From positions 11,036,001-11,100,000 of the forward strand of contig OZ024741.1 of NCBI GenBank assembly GCA_964016885.1: a stretch of DNA of 64,000 nucleotides. The letters are read 5' to 3'. The notes under the pieces were generated by a model. That model saw only the letters and a list, made by a program, of their open reading frames with translations, had not been told where the DNA came from and did no database searches. Source of the DNA: Eledone cirrhosa (lineage: Eukaryota). A program made the translations under genes and the position numbers. Within the stretch, counting starts at the first letter, position 1; each line of letters starts with the position of its first letter. This document shows positions 2,402 through 46,851 of the stretch, piece by piece.

Positions 2402-2439
<38 letters not shown>

Positions 2440-2442
<3 letters not shown>

Positions 2443-5400
2443 CCCTCTGCCGCTCATATCGAATTTCGTTTTTCGTGAACTCGTGCGCCGATTTTTCGAT
2501 ACTCGATCTTTCTAATATATTTAGCTCTGGACATAGCTATCCACCAGTTAATTTTATTGCTCATTTTTTGTCGATTCTATTGAGTGATGAATAGCTTTTG
2601 TTTTATTTTAACATGTCTATTGAGCACTCTAATTCGATATGTGTATTTCCACATTCACTCGAATTGTTTTCGCGGATATAGGGGTCATCTCCCTTGTCTA
2701 ATGCCATGTGCGTTTTTCACCGCTAGTTGACTCCTTTGCCGCCAGGAAAAAACTCGTTGACAACGTAAACTCCGTTCCACTTATTCTAGTAGGCTTTTAT
2801 ATTTATATGTGAGCTGATAGAGTACTGTCTAAGGATTTACAGAAACCCATGAAGCTAGATTTAACACCTTTCTAGTGGGTCCGGGTATGATTTTACATTC
2901 ATTTAAATTATTGACGTATTGTTTTATTGATATTTTTTATCTGTTTGGCCCGAATCTTCCTTTATCGATTTTAAATCGTATGGTTGATTGTAGACTTGTT
3001 CTATATGTGACGGTATTTTAACGATAGTTATAGCTCTGATTCATCTGAATTATTGAGCCCTCTGCCGCTCATATCGAATTTCGTTTTTCGTGAACTCGTG
3101 CGCCGATTTTTCGATACTCGATCTTTCTAATATATTTAGCTCTGGACATAGCTATCCACCAGTTAATTTTATTGCTCATTTTTTGTCGATTCTATTGAGT
3201 GATGAATAGCTTTTGTTTTATTTTAACATGTCTATTGAGCACTCTAATTCGATATGTGTATTTCCACATTCACTCGAATTGTTTTCGCGGATATAGGGGT
3301 CATCTCCCTTGTCTAATGCCATGTGCGTTTTTCACCGCTAGTTGACTCCTTTGCCGCCAGGAAAAAACTCGTTGACAACGTAAACTCCGTTCCACTTATT
3401 CTAGTAGGCTTTTATATTTATATGTGAGCTGATAGAGTACTGTCTAAGGATTTACAGAAACCCATGAAGCTAGATTTAACACCTTTCTAGTGGGTCCGGG
3501 TATGATTTTACATTCATTTAAATTATTGACGTATTGTTTTATTGATATTTTTTATCTGTTTGGCCCGAATCTTCCTTTATCGATTTTAAATCGTATGGTT
3601 GATTGTAGACTTGTTCTATATGTGACGGTATTTTAACGATAGTTATAGCTCTGATTCATCTGAATTATTGAGCCCTCTGCCGCTCATATCGAATTTCGTT
3701 TTTCGTGAACTCGTGCGCCGATTTTTCGATACTCGATCTTTCTAATATATTTAGCTCTGGACATAGCTATCCACCAGTTAATTTTATTGCTCATTTTTTG
3801 TCGATTCTATTGAGTGATGAATAGCTTTTGTTTTATTTTAACATGTCTATTGAGCACTCTAATTCGATATGTGTATTTCCACATTCACTCGAATTGTTTT
3901 CGCGGATATAGGGGTCATCTCCCTTGTCTAATGCCATGTGCGTTTTTCACCGCTAGTTGACTCCTTTGCCGCCAGGAAAAAACTCGTTGACAACGTAAAC
4001 TCCGTTCCACTTATTCTAGTAGGCTTTTATATTTATATGTGAGCTGATAGAGTACTGTCTAAGGATTTACAGAAACCCATGAAGCTAGATTTAACACCTT
4101 TCTAGTGGGTCCGGGTATGATTTTACATTCATTTAAATTATTGACGTATTGTTTTATTGATATTTTTTATCTGTTTGGCCCGAATCTTCCTTTATCGATT
4201 TTAAATCGTATGGTTGATTGTAGACTTGTTCTATATGTGACGGTATTTTAACGATAGTTATAGCTCTGATTCATCTGAATTATTGAGCCCTCTGCCGCTC
4301 ATATCGAATTTCGTTTTTCGTGAACTCGTGCGCCGATTTTTCGATACTCGATCTTTCTAATATATTTAGCTCTGGACATAGCTATCCACCAGTTAATTTT
4401 ATTGCTCATTTTTTGTCGATTCTATTGAGTGATGAATAGCTTTTGTTTTATTTTAACATGTCTATTGAGCACTCTAATTCGATATGTGTATTTCCACATT
4501 CACTCGAATTGTTTTCGCGGATATAGGGGTCATCTCCCTTGTCTAATGCCATGTGCGTTTTTCACCGCTAGTTGACTCCTTTGCCGCCAGGAAAAAACTC
4601 GTTGACAACGTAAACTCCGTTCCACTTATTCTAGTAGGCTTTTATATTTATATGTGAGCTGATAGAGTACTGTCTAAGGATTTACAGAAACCCATGAAGC
4701 TAGATTTAACACCTTTCTAGTGGGTCCGGGTATGATTTTACATTCATTTAAATTATTGACGTATTGTTTTATTGATATTTTTTATCTGTTTGGCCCGAAT
4801 CTTCCTTTATCGATTTTAAATCGTATGGTTGATTGTAGACTTGTTCTATATGTGACGGTATTTTAACGATAGTTATAGCTCTGATTCATCTGAATTATTG
4901 AGCCCTCTGCCGCTCATATCGAATTTCGTTTTTCGTGAACTCGTGCGCCGATTTTTCGATACTCGATCTTTCTAATATATTTAGCTCTGGACATAGCTAT
5001 CCACCAGTTAATTTTATTGCTCATTTTTTGTCGATTCTATTGAGTGATGAATAGCTTTTGTTTTATTTTAACATGTCTATTGAGCACTCTAATTCGATAT
5101 GTGTATTTCCACATTCACTCGAATTGTTTTCGCGGATATAGGGGTCATCTCCCTTGTCTAATGCCATGTGCGTTTTTCACCGCTAGTTGACTCCTTTGCC
5201 GCCAGGAAAAAACTCGTTGACAACGTAAACTCCGTTCCACTTATTCTAGTAGGCTTTTATATTTATATGTGAGCTGATAGAGTACTGTCTAAGGATTTAC
5301 AGAAACCCATGAAGCTAGATTTAACACCTTTCTAGTGGGTCCGGGTATGATTTTACATTCATTTAAATTATTGACGTATTGTTTTATTGATATTTTTTAT

Positions 5401-7440
5401 CTGTTTGGCCCGAATCTTCCTTTATCGATTTTAAATCGTATGGTTGATTGTAGACTTGTTCTATATGTGACGGTATTTTAACGATAGTTATAGCTCTGAT
5501 TCATCTGAATTATTGAGCCCTCTGCCGCTCATATCGAATTTCGTTTTTCGTGAACTCGTGCGCCGATTTTTCGATACTCGATCTTTCTAATATATTTAGC
5601 TCTGGACATAGCTATCCACCAGTTAATTTTATTGCTCATTTTTTGTCGATTCTATTGAGTGATGAATAGCTTTTGTTTTATTTTAACATGTCTATTGAGC
5701 ACTCTAATTCGATATGTGTATTTCCACATTCACTCGAATTGTTTTCGCGGATATAGGGGTCATCTCCCTTGTCTAATGCCATGTGCGTTTTTCACCGCTA
5801 GTTGACTCCTTTGCCGCCAGGAAAAAACTCGTTGACAACGTAAACTCCGTTCCACTTATTCTAGTAGGCTTTTATATTTATATGTGAGCTGATAGAGTAC
5901 TGTCTAAGGATTTACAGAAACCCATGAAGCTAGATTTAACACCTTTCTAGTGGGTCCGGGTATGATTTTACATTCATTTAAATTATTGACGTATTGTTTT
6001 ATTGATATTTTTTATCTGTTTGGCCCGAATCTTCCTTTATCGATTTTAAATCGTATGGTTGATTGTAGACTTGTTCTATATGTGACGGTATTTTAACGAT
6101 AGTTATAGCTCTGATTCATCTGAATTATTGAGCCCTCTGCCGCTCATATCGAATTTCGTTTTTCGTGAACTCGTGCGCCGATTTTTCGATACTCGATCTT
6201 TCTAATATATTTAGCTCTGGACATAGCTATCCACCAGTTAATTTTATTGCTCATTTTTTGTCGATTCTATTGAGTGATGAATAGCTTTTGTTTTATTTTA
6301 ACATGTCTATTGAGCACTCTAATTCGATATGTGTATTTCCACATTCACTCGAATTGTTTTCGCGGATATAGGGGTCATCTCCCTTGTCTAATGCCATGTG
6401 CGTTTTTCACCGCTAGTTGACTCCTTTGCCGCCAGGAAAAAACTCGTTGACAACGTAAACTCCGTTCCACTTATTCTAGTAGGCTTTTATATTTATATGT
6501 GAGCTGATAGAGTACTGTCTAAGGATTTACAGAAACCCATGAAGCTAGATTTAACACCTTTCTAGTGGGTCCGGGTATGATTTTACATTCATTTAAATTA
6601 TTGACGTATTGTTTTATTGATATTTTTTATCTGTTTGGCCCGAATCTTCCTTTATCGATTTTAAATCGTATGGTTGATTGTAGACTTGTTCTATATGTGA
6701 CGGTATTTTAACGATAGTTATAGCTCTGATTCATCTGAATTATTGAGCCCTCTGCCGCTCATATCGAATTTCGTTTTTCGTGAACTCGTGCGCCGATTTT
6801 TCGATACTCGATCTTTCTAATATATTTAGCTCTGGACATAGCTATCCACCAGTTAATTTTATTGCTCATTTTTTGTCGATTCTATTGAGTGATGAATAGC
6901 TTTTGTTTTATTTTAACATGTCTATTGAGCACTCTAATTCGATATGTGTATTTCCACATTCACTCGAATTGTTTTCGCGGATATAGGGGTCATCTCCCTT
7001 GTCTAATGCCATGTGCGTTTTTCACCGCTAGTTGACTCCTTTGCCGCCAGGAAAAAACTCGTTGACAACGTAAACTCCGTTCCACTTATTCTAGTAGGCT
7101 TTTATATTTATATGTGAGCTGATAGAGTACTGTCTAAGGATTTACAGAAACCCATGAAGCTAGATTTAACACCTTTCTAGTGGGTCCGGGTATGATTTTA
7201 CATTCATTTAAATTATTGACGTATTGTTTTATTGATATTTTTTATCTGTTTGGCCCGAATCTTCCTTTATCGATTTTAAATCGTATGGTTGATTGTAGAC
7301 TTGTTCTATATGTGACGGTATTTTAACGATAGTTATAGCTCTGATTCATCTGAATTATTGAGCCCTCTGCCGCTCATATCGAATTTCGTTTTTCGTGAAC
7401 TCGTGCGCCGATTTTTCGATACTCGATCTTTCTAATATAT
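2440..7440 (+). repeat. Tandem array of a 615-bp non-coding unit, 8 full copies plus ~80 bp, flanked by (TA)n
   Basis: GAGCCCTCTGCCGCTC recurs at 2440, 3055, 3670, 4285, 4900, 5515, 6130, 6745, 7360; no differences between copies seen by eye; no ORF in track. Confidence 0.98.
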
Positions 7441-7490
7441 ATATATATATAAATGTGTTTGTGCGCGCATGCGTGTAAGTGCGCGCGTGT

Positions 7491-7533
<43 letters not shown>

Positions 7534-8844: not shown

Positions 8845-9327
8845 GTCATAGCCAAGTTGATACTCCAGATATATGTCATAGCTAAGATGATACTCAAGAT
8901 ATGTCATAGCTAAGATGATACTCAAGATATATGTCATAGCCAAGTTGATACTCAAGATATATGTCATAGCCAAGTTGATACTCCAGATATATGTCATAGC
9001 TAAGATGATACTCAAGATATATGTCATAGCTAAGATGATACTCAAGATATATGTCATAGCCAAGTTGATACTCAAGATATATGTCATAGCCAAGTTGATA
9101 CTCCAGATATATGTCATAGCTAAGATGATACTCAAGATATATGTCATAGCCAAGTTGATACTCCAGATATATGTCATAGCTAAGATGATACTCAAGATAT
9201 ATGTCATAGCCAAGTTGATACTCCAGATATATGTCATAGCTAAGATGATACTCAAGATATATGTCATAGCCAAGTTGATACTCAATTCAAGATAGATGTC
9301 ATAGTCAAGTTGATACTCAAGATAGAC
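8845..9327. repeat. 30-bp minisatellite (GTCATAGCYAAGWTGATACTCMAGATATAT), ~16 copies
   Basis: 30-nt periodicity with a few recurring variants; explains ORFs 8815..9345 and 8915..9295. Confidence 0.96.
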
Positions 9328-10026: not shown

Positions 10027-10609
10027 CAGTTAATTTTATTGTTCATTTTTTGTCGATTCTATTAAATGATGAATAGCTCCTGTTTATTTTAACATGTCTA
10101 TTGAGCACTCTTATTCGATATGTGTATTTCCACATTTTCCCGAATATTTTTTTGCGGATATAGAGGTTATCTCCCTTGCTGAATTCCATGTGCGTTTTTT
10201 CAACCTGGGTTATGCCTTATCATTCGTTCGGACAAAAGCTCGTTGAGGAAATAAATTCCCGTCCGCTGGCTTCTAGAAGTCTTATATATTTTTATGTGAG
10301 CTGATAGAGGGCAGTTTAAGGATTTACAGAAACCCAAGAAGCTAGATTTACCATCTTTCTAGCGGGTCCGGGTATGCTTTTTACATTCATTTGATTTATT
10401 GATTTATTGATATTTTATCTGAGTGTCCCGAATCTTCCAGATCGCAATTTTTCGGTCGTATGGTTGATTTTAGACATGTTCTATATGTGACGGTATTTTA
10501 ACGATAGTTATAGCTCTGATTTATCTGAATTATTGAGCCCTCTGCCGCTCATTTCGAACTTTGTTTATCGTGAACTCGTGCGCCGATTTTTCGATACTCG
10601 ATTATTCTA
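10027..10609 (+). mobile_element. Diverged, circularly permuted near-monomer of the 615-bp element, flanked by (TA)n
   Basis: Collinear with the array from CAGTTAATTTTATTG across the unit junction to CTCGAT..TTCTA; many substitutions. Confidence 0.93.
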
Positions 10610-10938: not shown

Positions 10939-11915
10939 ATTTCTTTATTAGCCACAGGGGCACAAAAGAAGGGGACAAATACAAAGGGGGAAGTTTACAT
11001 ACAATAAAAACGTGTAAAATGTTATCACAGATGGAATTTAAAAGTTAGTCGATTTTCCCCAATAGAGGGAGACAGTTTATATGGGTAACACAGACCCCCG
11101 AAAAAAATGTGCAACCCTCATCTCCAGGAGTACGAAGAGCTTGTACTCCTTTCCTCTCCTCCTCCTTTTCCTCAACCTACAGGCTGATATAAAGAGAAGG
11201 CCCATTCACTCGGGCCATTCTCGCCACTTTCACCCACCTTTCATAAAACTTGCTGGGGTACAGCACCTCTCTCTCCATCCTGATTCTTCTTCCAAAGTGG
11301 TATTTGAAAAAAAGAATCAGTTGTTGGCCGGAGAGAAAGGTGTCTGACCTCAGCCCTTTCAACCTTGTCCACCATACAACCTCTTTCGCCATAGCTATCA
11401 CACAAAGGAAAACCGCCTCTCCTTCGTTTTTGAAGGAGGGTGGCGGTTTGATCATGACAATGGACTCGGTGGTCAACTGGATTGGTCCCACCCGCGACAA
11501 TAGTCGTTCTACATAGCCCCACAGGTCAGTGACGCCCGGGCAGTGTATGAATGCGTGCGCGACGGTTTCTTCGTCTCGCACGCACCTCGGACAGATCTTT
11601 TTTGCAGGGTCCCTGCCCGGGCGCCCATGTCTGTATAGCTTGTCTCGAACTGGTAGAGCTCCTCGGTAGCACTGCCAGGCCAGGGACTTTTGGAAGTTGT
11701 CCATCGGTCCCGGGCGGAAGGTCCTACCGAACAGACTGGCCAGTTCATCTTCCTCCACGCCTAGAGTTTCACCGAGCGCGTCGTCGCACTTGCTGCGGAC
11801 CAACCCTCTATAGAATGACGAAGTGGAGTCTCCACTGATCGCCGGGTCCGCCTGCCAGAGGGCTGTGAGCGCCTGAGCACATTCGATGTGCCAGTCGCCC
11901 ATTTTCCTCGGTCTC
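10939..11915 (-). mobile_element. Tx1-like (L1 group) LINE, 5'-truncated copy A: zf-RVT/CCHC C-terminus and 3' UTR
   Basis: ORF 11177..11902 with WQCYRGALPVRDKL and CPRC..EETVAHAFIHC; both ends abut (GATA)n. Confidence 0.88.
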
Positions 11916-11940
11916 TAGATAGATAGATAGATAGATAGAT

Positions 11941-14212
11941 AATTTTCTTTTTATTTGCCACCAGGGCATCAAAAAGTGGGACAAGTACAATGGGGGGAGT
12001 TTACAAAAGAAGGCGTCCTCAATAAGGAGGAGGCAATAACAAGATATAAAAATAAAATACATAACAAAATAAATTTTATAACAAAATCCTCAATAGGGAG
12101 GAGGCACCTGGGGTCGCACACACCCCCGAAAAAAGTGTGCAACCCTTCTCCTCAGGAGCACAGAGAGGGGGTGCTGCCTTGATCTTTTATCTTCCTCACC
12201 TATAGTCTGATGTAGATTGAAGGCCCATTCACACGAGCCATTCTCGCCACTTTCACCCATCTTTCATAAAAACGGCTGGGGTGCAGCACCTCTCTCTCCA
12301 TCCTGATCCTTCTTCCGAAATGGTATCGGAAGAAACGGACCAGTTGTTGGCCAGAGAGAAAGGTGTCTGACCTCAGTCCTTTCAGACGCGCCACCATACA
12401 ACCTCTTTCGCCATGGCTATTACGCACAGAAACACCGCCTCTCCTTCGTTTTTGAAGAGGGGAGGCGGCTTGATCGTTACAATAGACTCGGTGGTCAACC
12501 GGATCGGTCCCACCCTTGACAGCAGTTGTTCGACATAGCCCCACAGATCGGCAATGCCCGAGCAGTGTACCAATGCGTGTGCAACGGTTTCCTCGTCGCA
12601 CACGCATCTGGGACAGATCTTTTTCGAGGGGTCCCTACCCGGGCGCCCGTGTCTGTAGAGCCTTTCTCGAACGGGCAGAGCCCTTCTGTAGCACTGCCAG
12701 GCCAGGGACCTCTGGAAGTTATCCATGGGTCCCGGGATGAATGTCCTACCGAACAGGTTGGCCAGTTCGTCTTCCTCCATGTCTAGGGCTTCTCCGAGGG
12801 CGTCGTCGCACCTGCTAACCACCAGCCCTCTATAGAATGACGAGGTGGATTCTCCACTGACAGCCGGGTCCGCCTGCCAGAGAGCCGTGAGCGCCTGGGC
12901 ACACTCGGTGTGCCAGGCGCCCAGTTTTCTCGGTCTTTGCTTGACCCAGGATTATAGCTCGGTGAGTGAGACGAGTGTGGGAAAGGCTCGCCTCACAAAC
13001 GCGGCCCACACCGATTGACCGGAGAGGAATACCTGGAGGTGCCGTAGCCTTAATGCGTGTTTACGTATCATTAACCACGGCATTCCAGCCCTCCTTTCGA
13101 AGGGTGTTGACAGCAGATGGATCTCCTCACCAAAGGAGCCCGCTTCTTCCAAAGGAATTGGAAGAGTGTGCGCTCCATTTTGGCGAGCGTTTCCCTTGCA
13201 ACAACTCCAACTTCCGCAGCAGTGGCTCTAGAATCATTACATATAGAAGGGAGGAGAGAGGGCACTCTTGTCGGATGGACCGGGCGATTTCGAACGGCTC
13301 CGAGAGGTAGCCGTTCACCTTGACCCTAGAGCAGATGCGGCTGCTGTGCATGGCATTGATCCAGCCCCTGAAAACGGGTCCGAAGCCTGCCGCCGCTAGC
13401 ACCGCATCCAGGTAACCATGGTCGACCCTATCGAACGCCTTAGATTGATCCAAATTGATCAGGGCCCCACCAAAGCCGGGTTCGTTCCCAACCCTCTCTA
13501 TGATGTATCGCATGAGGTGGAGGTTGTCGTGGATGGACCTGGACGGGATAGCACATGTCTGCGCATCTCCCACCAGGTTGCCCACGACAAGCGCCAACCT
13601 CTTTGCTAGCACCTTGGCCAAAATCTGTAACTCTGTATTTAGCAGAGTTATGGGCCTGAAATTATTTATATCGTCCCCCTTGTTCTCGTCCTTCCTCACT
13701 AGCGTGACTACGCCCTTGGTCACAGCACAGGGAATTCTCCCGTTCTGTTGCCAGTTGCAGTAGACCGCCTCGAGGAGATCGGGGAACAAGTCCGGCATAG
13801 CTAGATATAGTTCGTATGGAAGACCATCGAGACCCGGGGATTTGCGTTTGCCGCATTGGCTCAGCACGTCCTCTATCTCAGCGGCTGAAATCGGCTCCTC
13901 GCAGGACTTCGCCTCCCTGTCCGAGAGACGCGGCAGGCCGTCGAGGTATGGACCGAAGTCCACTTCCCCAACCGGCTCCTCGCCCCTTCTGAACAATCTG
14001 GCAAAGTGCTTTTGAAAAGCCTTGCACATCTGCTTAGGTTCAAGGATCACCCGTTCATCCTGGTCTCGCAAAGATCGGATAGTGGATCTACTCCCTCTTT
14101 TGGCTTCTGTCACGCGGGCCCAGCTAACAGCTTTCGTCCCCTCGTTTCCCAGAGCACGTATTTTGCTTCGGACGATGCAGCCTTCGTGTTTCGCGTCGAA
14201 GAACTGGCCCAG
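11941..14212 (-). mobile_element. Tx1-like LINE, 5'-truncated copy B with internally deleted, frameshifted RT
   Basis: RT motifs KSPGLDGLP, FRPITLLN, LDQSKAFDRV, RQECPLS in 13127..14113; YADD region missing; CCHC region 12382..12822; (GATA)n on both sides. Confidence 0.92.
13127..14113 (-). pseudogene. LINE ORF2 reverse transcriptase fragment
   Basis: Non-LTR RT motifs present up to QxCPLS, then a jump to the FQFLW...GGL region. Confidence 0.9.
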
Positions 14213-14264
14213 GATAGATAGATAGATCGTTACATATATATATATCTATATATATATGTGTGTG

Positions 14265-41443: not shown

Positions 41444-44400
41444 GACGTCACTTCCACACATGTATTGAGTTAAACCTGTCAGGTTAATATCAACTATTTT
41501 TTGACGTCACTTCCACACATGTATTGAGTACAACCTGTCAGGTTACAGTAAACTATTTTGTGACGTCACTTCCACACATATATTGAGTACAAACTGTCAG
41601 GTTAATATATATACTATTTGTGACGTCACTTCCAAACATGTATTGAGTACAACCTGTCAGGTTACTATAAACTATTTTGTTACGTCACTTCCACACATGT
41701 ATTGAGTACAACCTGTCAGGTTACTATAAACTATTTTTTGACGTCACTTCCACAAATGTATTGAGTACAACCTGTCAGGTTACAGTAAACTATTTTGTGA
41801 CGTCACTTCCACACATGTATTGAGTACAACCTATCAGGTTACTATAAACTATTTTGTGACGTCAGTTCCACACATGTATTGAGTACAACCTATCAGGTTA
41901 CTATAAACTATTTTGTGACGTCACTTCGACAAATGTATTGAGTACAACCTGTCAGGTTACTATGAACTATTTGTGACGTCACTTCCACACATGTATTGAG
42001 TACAACCTGTCAGGTTAATATAAAATATTTTGTGACGTCACTTCCACACATGTATTGAGTACAACCTGTCAGGTTAATATAAACTATTTGTGACGTCACT
42101 TCCACAAATGTATTGAGTACAACCTGTCAGGTTACTATAAACTATTTTGTGACGTCACTTCCACACATGTATTGAGTACAACCTGTCATTATACTATAAA
42201 CTATTTTGTGACGTCACTTCCAAACATGTATTGAGTACAACCTGTCATTATACTATAAACTATTTTGTGACGTCACTTCCACACATGTATTGAGTACAAC
42301 TTGTCAGTTTACTATAAACTATTTTGTGACGTCACTTCCACACATGTATTGAGTACAACCTGTCAGGTTAATATAAAATATTTTGTGACGTCACTTCCAC
42401 ACATGTATTGAGTACAAGTCAGGTTAATATAAACTATTTGTGACGTCACTTCCACACATGTATTGAGTACCACCTGTCAGGTATAAACTATTTGTGACTT
42501 CACTTCCACACCTGTATTGAGTACCACATGTCAGGTTAATATAAACTATTTGTGACGTCACTTCCACACATGTATTGAGTACAACCTGTCAGGTTACTAT
42601 AAACTATTTTGTGACGTCACTTCCACAAATGTATTGAGTACAACCTGTCAGGTTACTATAAACTATTTTGTGACGTCACTTCCACACATGTATTGAGTAC
42701 AACCTCTCAGGTAACTATAAACTATTTTGTGACGTCACTTCCACAAATGTATTGAGTACAACCTGTCAGGTTACTATAAACTATTTTGTGACGTCACTTC
42801 AACACATGTATTGAGTACAACTTGTCAGGTTGCTATAAACTATTTTGTGACGTCACTTCCAGACATGTATTGAGTACAATCTGTCAGGTTACTATAAACT
42901 ATTTTGTGACGTCACTTCCACACATGTATTGAGTACAACCTGTCAGGTTACTATAAACTATTTGTGACGTTACTTCCACACATGTATTGAGTACAACCTG
43001 TCATTATACTATAAACTATTTTGTGACGTCACTTCCACACATGTATTGAGTACAATCTGTCAGGTTTCTATCAAGTATTTGTGACGTCAGTTCCACACAT
43101 GTATTGAGTACAACCTATCAGGTTACTATAAACTATTTTGTGACGTCACTTCGACAAATGTATTGAGTACAACCTGTCAGGTTACTATGAACTATTTGTG
43201 ACGTCACTTCCACACATGTATTGAGTACAACCTGTCAGGTTAATATAAAATATTTTGTGACGTCACTTCCACACATGTATTGAGTACAACCTGTCAGGTT
43301 AATATAAACTATTGGTGACGTCACTTCCACAAATGTATTGAGTACAACCTGTCAGGTTACTATAAACTATTTTGTGACGTCACTTCCACACATGTATTGA
43401 GTACAACCTGTCATTATACTATAAACTATTTTGTGACGTCACTTCCAAACATGTATTGAGTACAACCTGTCATTATACTATAAACTATTTTGTGACGTCA
43501 CTTCCACACATGTATTGAGTACAACTTGTCAGTTTACTATAAACTATTTTGTGACGTCACTTCCACACATGTATTGAGTACAACCTGTCAGGTTAATATA
43601 AAATATTTTGTGACGTCACTTCCACACATGTATTGAGTACAAGTCAGGTTAATATAAACTATTTGTGACGTCACTTCCACACATGTATTGAGTACCACCT
43701 GTCAGGTATAAACTATTTGTGACTTCACTTCCACACCTGTATTGAGTACCACATGTCAGGTTAATATAAACTATTTGTGACGTCACTTCCACACATGTAT
43801 TGAGTACAACCTGTCAGGTTACTATAAACTATTTTGTGACGTCACTTCCACAAATGTATTGAGTACAACCTGTCAGGTTACTATAAACTATTTTGTGACG
43901 TCACTTCCACACATGTATTGAGTACAACCTCTCAGGTAACTATAAACTATTTTGTGACGTCACTTCCACAAATCTATTGAGTACAACCTGTCAGGTTACT
44001 ATAAACTATTTTGTGACGTCACTTCAACACATGTATTGAGTACAACTTGTCAGGTTGCTATAAACTATTTTGTGACGTCACTTCCAGACATGTATTGAGT
44101 ACAATCTGTCAGGTTACTATAAACTATTTTGTGACGTCACTTCCACACATGTATTGAGTACAACCTGTCAGGTTACTATAAACTATTTGTGACGTTACTT
44201 CCACACATGTATTGAGTACAACCTGTCATTATACTATAAACTATTTTGTGACGTCACTTCCACACATGTATTGAGTACAATCTGTCAGGTTTCTATCAAG
44301 TATTTGTGACGTCACTTCCACACATGTATTGAGTAAAACCTGTCAGGTTAATATAAACTATTTTGTGACGTCACTTCCACACATGTATTGAGTACAACCT

Positions 44401-46851
44401 GTCAGGTTAATATAAACTATTTTGTGACGTCACTTCCACACATGTATTGAGTACAACCTGTCAGGTTACTATAAACTATTTTATGACGTCACTTCCACAC
44501 ATGTATTGAGTACAACCTGTCATTATACTATAAACTATTTTGTGACGTCACTTCCAGACATGTATTGAGTACAACCTGTCATTATACTATAAACTATTTT
44601 GTGACGTCACTTCCACACATGTATTGAGTACAACCTGTCAGGTTAATATAAACTATTTGTGACGTCACTTCCATACATGTATTGAGTACAATCTGTCAGA
44701 TTACTATAAACTATTTTGTGACGTCACTTCCACACATGTATTGAGTACAACCTGTCAGGTTAATATAAACTATTTTGTGACGTCACTTCCACACATGTAT
44801 TGAGTACAACCTGTCAGGTTAATATAAACTATTTGTGACGTGACTTCCACACATGTATTGAGTACAACCTGTCAGGTTACTATAAACAATTTTGTGACGT
44901 CACTTCCACACATGTATTGAGTACAACCTGTCAGGTTACTATAAACTATTTTGTGACGTCACTTCCACAAATGTATTGAGTACAACCTGTCAGGTTACTA
45001 TAAATTATATTGTGACGTCACTTCCATACATGTATTGAGTACAACATGTCAGGTAACTATAAACTATTTTGTGACGTCACTTCCACACATGTATTGAGTA
45101 CAACCTGTCAGGTATAAACTATATGTGACGTCACTTCCACACCTGTATTGAGTACCACCTGTCAGGTATAAACTATTTGTGACGTCATTTCCACACCTGT
45201 ATTGAGTAACACCTGTCAGGTATAAACTATATGTGACGTCACTTCCACACCTGTATTGAGTAACACCTGTCAGGTATAAACTATATGTGACGTCACTTCC
45301 ACACCTGTATTGAGTACCACCTGTCAGGTATAAACTATTTGTGACGTCACTTCCACACCTGTATTGAGTACAACCTGTCAGGTATAAACTATATGTGACG
45401 TCATTTCCACACCTGTATTGAGTACCACCTGTCAGGTATAAACTATATGTGACGTCACTTCCACACCTGTATTGAGTACCACCTGTCAGGTATAAACTAT
45501 TTGTGACGTCACTTCCACACCTGTATTGAGTACAACCTGTCAGGTATATACTATATGTGACGTCATTTCCACACCTGTATTGAGTGCCACCTGTCAGGTA
45601 TAAACTATATGTGACGTCACTTCCTCACCTGTATTGAGTACAACCTGTCAGGTATAAACTATATGTGACGTCACTTCCTCACCTGTATTGAGTACAACCT
45701 GTCAGGTATAAACTATATGTGACGTCACTTCCTCACCTGTATTGAGTACAACCTGTCAGGTATAAACTATATGTGACGTCACTTCCACACCTGTATTGAG
45801 TGCCACCTGTCAGGTATATACTATATGTGACGTCACTTCCACACCTGTATTGAGTACCACCTGTCAGGTATATACTATATGTGACGTCACTTCCTCACCT
45901 GTATTGAGTGCCACCTGTCCGGTATAAACTATATGTGACGTCACTTCCACACCTGTATTGAGTACCACCTGTCAGGTATATACTCTATGTGACGTCACTT
46001 CCACACCTGTATTGAGTGCCACCTGTCAGGTATAAACTATATGTGACGTCACTTCCACACCTGTATTGAGTACCACCTGTCAGGTATAAACTATATGTGA
46101 CGTCACTTCCACACCTGTATTGAGTGCCACCTGTCAGGTATATACTATATGTGACGTCACTTCCACACCTGTATTGAGTACCACCTGTCAGGTATATACT
46201 ATATGTGACGTCACTTCCTCACCTGTATTGAGTGCCACCTGTCCGGTATAAACTATATGTGACGTCACTTCCACACCTGTATTGAGTACCACCTGTCAGG
46301 TATATACTATATGTGACGTCACTTCCTCACCTGTATTGAGTGCCACCTGTCAGGTATAAACTATATGTGACGTCACTTCCACACCTGTATTGAGTACCAC
46401 CTGTCAGGTATATACTCTATGTGACGTCACTTCCTCACCTGTATTGAGTGCCACCTGTCAGGTATAAACTATATGTGACGTCACTTCCACACCTGTATTG
46501 AGTACCACCTGTCAGGTATATACTCTATGTGACGTCACTTCCTCACCTGTATTGAGTGCCACCTGTCAGGTATAAACTATATGTGACGTCACTTCCACAC
46601 CTGTATTGAGTACCACCTGTCAGGTATAAACTATATGTGACGTCACTTCCACACCTGTATTGAGTACCACCTGTCAGGTATATACTCTATGTGACGTCAC
46701 TTCCACACCTGTATTGAGTGCCACCTGTCAGGTATATACTCTATGTGACGTCACTTCCACACCTGTATTGAGTGCCACCTGTCAGGTATAAACTATATGT
46801 GACGTCACTTCCACACCTGTATTGAGTACCACCTGTCAGGTATAAACTATA
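41444..46851. repeat. Satellite of 58-59-bp units switching to 55-bp units near 45100, ~90-95 copies, each with GTGACGTCACTTCC
   Basis: Periodicity seen directly; 1225-bp internal duplication 41856-43080 / 43081-44305. Confidence 0.98.

Follow-up and report, generated by a model that had tools for sequence, protein, structure and literature searches.

What is the 615-bp tandem array that lies between TA repeats in a 64,000-nucleotide stretch of the Eledone cirrhosa genome (assembly GCA_964016885.1, contig OZ024741.1, positions 11,036,001 to 11,100,000 of the forward strand; hereinafter the window, to which the coordinates below refer unless given as unit positions): an ordinary satellite, or the trace of a structured RNA that was copied back into DNA? 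A preliminary description of the window took the array for a rolling-circle copy of a non-coding RNA of the retrozyme kind. The analysis presented here indicates that it is probably a recent insertion of a non-coding retroelement that carries an elongated type I hammerhead and was written by a Neptune-type Penelope reverse transcriptase (RT)/endonuclease running round a circular unit RNA. The components of this conclusion differ in strength: there is little doubt that the element is a retrozyme-type retroelement, the involvement of a Penelope-type enzyme is highly likely, and an RNA circle as the template of the long arrays is the solution that we favor with some reserve. The retrozyme class and its proposed life cycle are already known (PMC7229834; bioRxiv 10.64898/2026.07.22.740005), and a circular RNA template has been proposed, though to our knowledge not shown, for the head-to-tail tandems of Penelope-like elements (PLEs) (PMC4209133, PMC7229834).

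The whole insertion, which belongs to subfamily A of the family described below, spans positions 2439 to 7434 on the + strand and consists of a 5'-truncated stub of 76 bases (2439-2514, unit positions 540-615), the 5' start of the array, followed by eight whole identical 615-bp units (2515-7434); unit numbering starts at 2515, so that unit position 615 is the common end point. The period is perfect across 2439-7440 (8.13 periods), with 4386 of 4386 matches at a lag of 615 against 1388 at most at the neighboring lags (610-620), in agreement with the roughly 8.1 undifferentiated head-to-tail copies counted originally. The GC content of the unit is 36% and its longest stop-free stretch is 62 amino acids, so the array indeed contains no open reading frame (ORF) and falls short of an autonomous PLE, which would encode an RT and a GIY-YIG endonuclease. 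The TA repeats reported on both sides are evident from the sequence: the (TA)n target occupies 2405-2438 on the 5' side (no strand is assigned to it), and the true fixed end at 7434 is followed by ATATAT (7435-7440, + strand), a sequence that the target shares with the beginning of the next unit and that represents the predicted priming microhomology. The array flanks at 2360-2404 and 7450-7495, about 45 bases each, are similar but non-identical; this pair is an older local duplication, not a target-site duplication, and the flanks of 26 locus pieces share no non-microsatellite word over 9 bases. An older, independent insertion of subfamily B lies on the same strand at 10027-10609 within (TA)n, covers unit positions 31-615 and is about 84% identical to the array unit, confirming the diverged monomer with another start and the same end that had been noticed before.

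The family is dispersed over the 3.0-Gb genome: the array unit has 549 candidate places on many contigs (27 of them scored), the monomer sequence has 2,349, and a single 19-base motif yields 4,947 exact matches compared with 0 for the reversed control. A metagenome scan returned 5 matches, each a chance 19-mer. Unit lengths across the superfamily span 583-652 bp: identity to A is 65-83% in subfamilies B-E, whose units measure 598-630 bp, and F, G and H, with units of 583, 616 and 652 bp, respectively, are more distant. Within subfamilies, units differ by about 0.2% in A and 2.5% in B. Insertion ends were tabulated for the 26 best-scoring subfamily-A arrays (25 fetched and the one in the window), a set biased to long copies, and for a motif-defined sample from contig C1 (106 stretches, from which 2 without the motif, 6 duplicates and 3 cut by the end of the stretch were dropped); L256, which starts at an assembly gap, and L263 were excluded from the end counts. 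All 26 arrays have the same 3' end followed by TA repeats, with 5' ends scattered across unit positions 34-600, and the 3' end is fixed in 92 of the 95 scorable insertions of the motif-defined sample. The ends and flanks at other loci are not random but combine a single 3' end with (TA)n; the picture postulated from the two copies in the window, of a non-autonomous retroelement that is dispersed, ends at one fixed 3' point and is variably truncated at the 5' end, is recovered genome-wide. The arrays consist purely of head-to-tail units, truncated at their 5' ends and without a long terminal repeat (LTR) layout, neither the PBS (primer-binding site) nor the PPT (polypurine tract) having been searched for separately. 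Two of the 26 arrays contain a back-to-back inversion; both arms of these insertions are multimeric, and the second arm of both ends near unit position 512. This second end point falls in the GAUA loop (about 3026) of a three-way junction (3011-3067, + strand) that lies close to the unit's 3' end, is almost invariant and has compensated helices; it is a candidate enzyme-binding element.

Covariation also bears out the claim that the array encodes a structured RNA and assigns it to the + strand. In an alignment of 11 related representatives, 17 of 131 predicted pairs are changed on both sides. The reverse strand has 6 such pairs, and 40 column shuffles give 4.8 +/- 2.4, with a maximum of 11; the value of 17 was reached in 0 of 500 shuffles, a lenient control for related sequences. 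The circular-fold z scores of the + strand in four subfamilies range from -2.2 to -4.3, one of the four also scoring -5.0 on the - strand. An all-against-all scan for pseudoknot helices gave 12 helices with at least 2 two-sided changes versus 1-6 in 8 shuffles; these are mostly short and conflicting and were left unused. Unit positions 68-74 (about 2582-2588), inside a long conserved hairpin, read RUGAUGA (C-box-like) in subfamilies A-C and CUGAUGA in D-E; this hairpin is a possible kink-turn and contains no hammerhead core.

Each unit contains a predicted type I hammerhead (2752-2886 on the + strand in the first whole unit; eight copies, one per 615 bp), delineated by the minimum-energy fold, conservation and pair counts. 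Stem I is formed by 2752-2756 with 2882-2886; the core UUGACAA (2757-2763) is followed by an extra C (2764), G10.1 (2765) pairs with C11.1 (2840), and an extra A (2841) precedes GAAA (2842-2845), so that one additional base stands on each side at the foot of stem II, the extra A being invariant. A long, bulged stem III hairpin (2845-2880) closes on GUC, with C17 at 2881, and the predicted cut and ligation site is GUC/C at 2881/2882 (unit position 367/368), the 32 bases around which are identical in 154 of 154 subfamily-A units. Stem II is elongated (2765-2840): a proximal helix of about 8 bp carries a covarying hairpin of about 60 nt (helix 7, with 4 of 5 pairs changed on both sides), the insert amounts to 75 nt, and the first core block lies 85 bases ahead of GAAA. 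The core blocks follow the ordinary type I order. The subfamily-B monomer has its U3-G8 core at 10243, its GAAA at 10329 and its C17 at 10368, and the elongated form is also found in three distant subfamilies (L339-L368, e.g. L351, L342 and L366; 113 pattern matches).

The hammerhead is the unconstrained minimum fold in the window's unit and in 8 of the 11 representatives. Among 16 representatives of subfamilies A-H, all 12 core positions (U4 G5 A6, A9, G12 A13 A14, A15.1-U16.1, H17 and G10.1-C11.1) are invariant in 16/16, compared with 28 of the 128 non-core columns, and N7 is variable, as expected. The core-helix cells are paired in 98.3% of 176 cases, a level matched in 4 of 500 shuffles; two core-helix pairs, in stems I and II, are changed on both sides, and stem I is compensated in subfamily H. 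The preliminary description had found no canonical ribozyme core. This is correct in that the core is non-canonical and lacks an Rfam match, and incorrect in that every unit carries an elongated type I hammerhead, which takes the retrozyme-like assignment beyond the original claim. Specifically, no Rfam ribozyme family was detected on the unit at E values up to 10 (only TA-repeat noise) or on five further subfamily loci at values up to 5, and a short-stem descriptor (spacer up to 60 nt) applied to both strands of 10 representatives found no hammerhead, being too tight: the 75-nt stem II insert hides the ribozyme from such descriptors. We know of no match of the unit to the twister, HDV, hairpin or pistol consensus. 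A first core candidate, CUGAUAG (about 2814), was rejected, as it is part of the covarying hairpin and is not conserved as a core.

Whole-circle predictions give stem I a probability of at most 0.02 in 14 of 14 units, although the values for the F and C2 representatives, which have decayed cut sites, are uninformative. A conserved mimic of the 5' strand of stem I (2948-2953, + strand; helix 13) is one predicted competitor, which in the whole circle would tie up the bases that follow the cut site. These uncontrolled predictions, for a 5-bp stem that is easily out-competed, hint that the hammerhead might be self-blocked in the whole circle.

The variants within the long arrays bear on how these were multiplied. 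Haplotypes are not mixed: four variants are held throughout by 3 (including the window's), 16, 6 and 1 of the 26 arrays, a six-change haplotype is present in every unit read of 5 further long arrays, all located within the initial 50 Mb of C1, and mixed-haplotype arrays amount to 0 among 26 plus 6. Array-private variants occur in all whole units (12/12 in L034 and 2/2 in L262). Such uniform haplotypes combined with array-private variants fit repeated copying of one monomer. The two arrays that were read from both ends contain about 16 and 18.7 units; no A-to-G editing scars were detected among the single-unit changes. The best surviving alternative, which we nevertheless consider unlikely, retains the element and the enzyme and dispenses with the circle: the template would be a linear multimeric read-through transcript, or else the enzyme would make repeated homology-guided jumps on a more-than-unit linear RNA. 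Partial tandems are formed by Naiad elements in the absence of canonical hammerheads (PMC8557442), multimers would stay uncut if the ribozyme were weak, and about two thirds of the first-pass templates pass the cut site. Furthermore, and this is the first of several observations that weigh against our reading, array L053 holds one variant in two adjacent units out of five, so that a single circle does not account for this array. Against linear templates stand the absence of haplotype mixing, the array-private variants and the exactness of all 154 cut-site joints; new variants must go through a monomer and then be re-multiplied.

The 5' ends of the insertions pile up next to the predicted cut site. 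Among the first-pass templates that reach unit position 392, 27 of 85 stop at 368-392. The remaining 18 windows of 25 bases together have 35 stops in 1,023 (odds ratio 13, p = 4e-16), and the adjoining upstream window has 1 in 58. Stops at 368-392 account for 4/7 in subfamily B, 13/41 in C, 7/20 in D and 2/10 in E, and for less, 1/7, in A; the first base is exactly C368 in two copies and G369 in one more. From this pile-up, we infer that the hammerhead cuts at 367/368. Somewhat less probable than a linear template is that the hammerhead is a vestige or serves in binding, with the pile-up produced by a reverse-transcription stall at stem III, which predicts a similar end position, by TA microhomology at 380, by a transcription start, or by a splice donor (GTRWG follows the site). 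Much of the contrary evidence belongs here. The peak of the ends falls at 380-383, a TA-like spot, which implies that microhomology shapes it; an independent listing of TA-joined ends counted by eye (8 of its 23 ends overlap the motif-defined sample) is softer, with 14/23 at 368-379, 8 at 350-367 and 1 at 348, a step of about 2.6-fold per base. Among the ends listed on the whole of C1, more than 20 lie at 335-363, and a smaller cluster at 313-315 coincides with another helix base. The local fold of the window's unit is not unusually stable (z -1.2), stem I reaches a probability of at least 0.66 in only 7 of 14 local folds, and the base of stem II contains a mismatch. The 3-8 pair is U-A in 11/16 representatives (including the window's unit), U-G in 3/16 and C-A in 2/16; judging from these bases, some subfamilies may have little or no activity left, and the minimal PLE hammerheads cleave poorly in vitro (PMC4209133). 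However, a vestigial ribozyme is hard to reconcile with the invariance of all 12 catalytic positions across about 35% divergence and more, and neither the better TA-like site at 283-292 nor longer helices show a comparable peak. A splice donor is at odds with the three copies that start at 368-369, upstream of the would-be intron start, and a circle made by splicing (branch-like CUGAY, CAG and GTRWG round a 45-nt stretch) with the count of spliced units, 0 among 70 whole units.

A search of the genome for the GIY-YIG domain returned 10,597 candidate places. In 50 of the 150 listed loci, several families combine an RT with a C-terminal GIY-YIG domain; most of them end in (TA)n, and they carry the upstream cysteine linker given for Neptune and Nematis (PMC8557442). 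The end and the internal tandem continuation of one Neptune-type family, N1, are the same 13 bases as in subfamily A, and three Neptune-type families in this genome have U3-A8 hammerheads, one of them with both extra bases. The partner enzyme is likely to be of the Neptune type. The remaining unfavorable observations concern this partner and the covariation. The 50 GIY-YIG loci analyzed, out of 150 listed, include no autonomous element homologous to the unit, and none was found next to 30 loci of the most distant subfamilies; the copies of N1 are mostly 93-98% identical to the one in the window and older than subfamily A, so that N1 may be too old to be the current partner of A; and the covariation counts come from one serial lineage, in which the events are few and related. 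Alignments of the 3' untranslated regions of 19 PLE loci to the unit were no better than shuffles. A 22-nt match to a Neptune family was rejected as a chance hit (antisense inside the ORF, E 0.04), as was the region C5:60.68-60.70 Mb as a tandem of whole N1 elements, there being no PLE ORF in it. Loci L117, L119 and L120 encode Neptune-type stop-free ORFs of 938, 1096 and 636 amino acids, respectively, with RT and GIY-YIG domains. In the window, an inverted, 5'-truncated 3' end of N1 lies within (TA)n at 1698-2022 and includes a minimal U3-A8 hammerhead with a palindromic stem III (1852-1881). At L363 (870-1560, oriented), a copy of subfamily H directly follows an N1 3' end in one TA tract.

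Retrotransposition of monomers or dimers followed by expansion at the DNA level, through unequal crossing-over or extrachromosomal DNA circles, is quite improbable. This route has been proposed for vertebrate retrozyme arrays (bioRxiv 10.64898/2026.07.22.740005), and the older subfamilies mostly comprise 1-3 units: of the 95 insertions in the motif-defined sample, 66 end within the first pass and 24 within the second. However, DNA-level expansion is contradicted by the many independent loci with 8-19 units in subfamily A despite a difference of only about 0.2% between units, by the multimeric state of both arms of the inverted insertions, and by the fact that the short subfamilies are the older ones, not the younger. 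Helitrons, rolling-circle DNA transposons, have a 5' TC and a 3' CTRR terminus. A Helitron derivative or an ordinary satellite could offer head-to-tail arrays with one fixed end and AT-rich targets, but is very unlikely given the unit ends without 5' TC or 3' CTRR, the strand-specific, G-U-tolerant covariation over the whole unit, the hammerhead, the back-to-back inversions and the dispersal on many contigs. An equally slim chance is left for an assembly artefact that duplicated one unit, suggested by the 100% identity of the eight copies and countered by the arrays at 26 or more loci on many contigs, which have haplotypes of their own and show scattered changes in single units, and by the head-to-tail joint in contigs of three public runs, one of which may be the source of this DNA. 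None of the runs listed for the unit is recorded as RNA, and all are contig sets. Run X2 yields one closed contig of the unit (645 letters) and none of the window's 42-bp satellite, and X4 yields both; as a missing contig carries no weight, this contrast was not used.

Under the retroelement scenario with an RNA circle, tandem copies would be transcribed from the + strand, and the hammerhead, the fold and conservation of which are described above, would cut the transcript at 367/368 into unit-length RNA, as the 5'-end pile-up suggests. Part of the monomers would then be ligated into circles, by analogy with the RtcB ligation in known retrozymes. The putative endonuclease would nick (TA)n, and the nicked end would pair with the internal AUAUAU and prime reverse transcription at one fixed point, which is consistent with the observed fixed end and microhomology. 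On a linear cut monomer, the enzyme would run off after about 247 bases, which would give the short copies with starts at 368-392; a circle would let it make repeated rounds to a random stop and generate arrays of identical units, such as those observed with up to 18.7 units. The second DNA strand may sometimes be primed at the GAUA loop near 512, producing the back-to-back arms.

A more far-reaching interpretation, which we offer tentatively and would not bet on, is that the family represents a long-lived lineage of animal RNA circles of about 600 nt, whose hitherto undescribed hammerhead is attenuated, blocks itself and folds only in the course of transcription. The genomic copies would then record both cut linear templates (the 247-base inserts) and closed circles, the Penelope RT would run for more than 11 kb by strand displacement from the one internal AUAUAU, and the youngest subfamily would have shifted to the circle and be expanding now. 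More generally, the family makes read-around reverse transcription testable: it supplies a substrate of 615 nt in which a cut site is predicted and the priming site is fixed, and its genomic products are of two kinds. Hammerheads with long stem II inserts escape descriptor and Rfam surveys, so that retrozymes may be undercounted and some 'satellites' misfiled.

The remaining repeats of the window are of other kinds. Two 5'-truncated long interspersed nuclear element (LINE) copies on the - strand (11177-14245), with an RT and a zinc-finger-like C-terminus, are bounded by (TAGA)n; judging by their motifs, we take them to be L1/Tx1-like. A 42-bp satellite (16419-37774; 509 copies, 94% matches) contains stop-free frames of more than 1,000 amino acids, a 59-bp satellite of about 95 copies occupies 41444-46850, and 30-bp arrays are located at 1-405 and 8845-9324.

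The combination of a non-canonical core, extra bases and a 75-nt stem II found in this hammerhead has no match in the literature searched, and no published description of the element or of the ribozyme form was found there, supplementary files being outside the search. Lunse et al. (2017; PMC5785218), a study of PLE hammerhead variants, may describe a similar form.

Among known systems, natural hammerheads with mismatches at the base of stem II have been reported (PMC3088659), and the ordinary type I block order sets the present ribozyme apart from the non-circularly permuted hammerheads of type SGC and CSG (PMC10085705). The plant LTR retrozymes and Avsunviroidae, as presented in PMC7229834, share the 600-nt size class and a ribozyme for which blocking by a complementary stretch of the circle is predicted; unlike these, the element described here has a type I rather than a type III hammerhead, shows no LTR, PBS or PPT (with the limit on the search for the latter two given above), and forms tandems in (TA)n rather than Gypsy-type insertions.

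The minimal hammerheads of PLEs (PMC4209133) are closer relatives, sharing the type I fold, the U3-A8 covariation, the single base between positions 9 and 10.1 and the conserved G10.1-C11.1 pair. However, those ribozymes have a tiny palindromic stem III and act as dimers, whereas here stem III is stable, the extra A is invariant and stem II contains a large covarying insert. With the Neptune, Naiad and Hydra PLEs (PMC8557442), the family shares 5' truncation, partial tandems, inverted 5'-truncated copies, (TA)n targets and the lack of a discernible target-site duplication; it differs from them in having no ORF and in forming arrays of up to 19 units instead of partial tandems.

The unit of 615 nt exceeds the 170-400 nt given for the metazoan non-LTR retrozymes of coral, mussel and axolotl (PMC7229834) and lies inside the 51-972 bp range of the vertebrate survey (bioRxiv 10.64898/2026.07.22.740005). 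The differences include the U3-A8/U3-G8/C3-A8 core, the extra bases on both sides of stem II, the 75-nt stem II and the long non-palindromic stem III, as well as a circle in which the ribozyme is predicted to be blocked; in most metazoan circles it is reported to be free (PMC7229834). Homology to a pseudo-LTR (pLTR) was not found here in 50 of the 150 listed GIY-YIG loci, compared with 24 of 57 Xenopus families. Shared with the metazoan retrozymes are non-coding tandems with one type I hammerhead per unit, a GC content below 50%, no LTR, and dispersal as monomers to multimers in a PLE-rich genome, so that the cycle of cutting, ligation and reverse transcription of a circle proposed for those elements fits this one as well.

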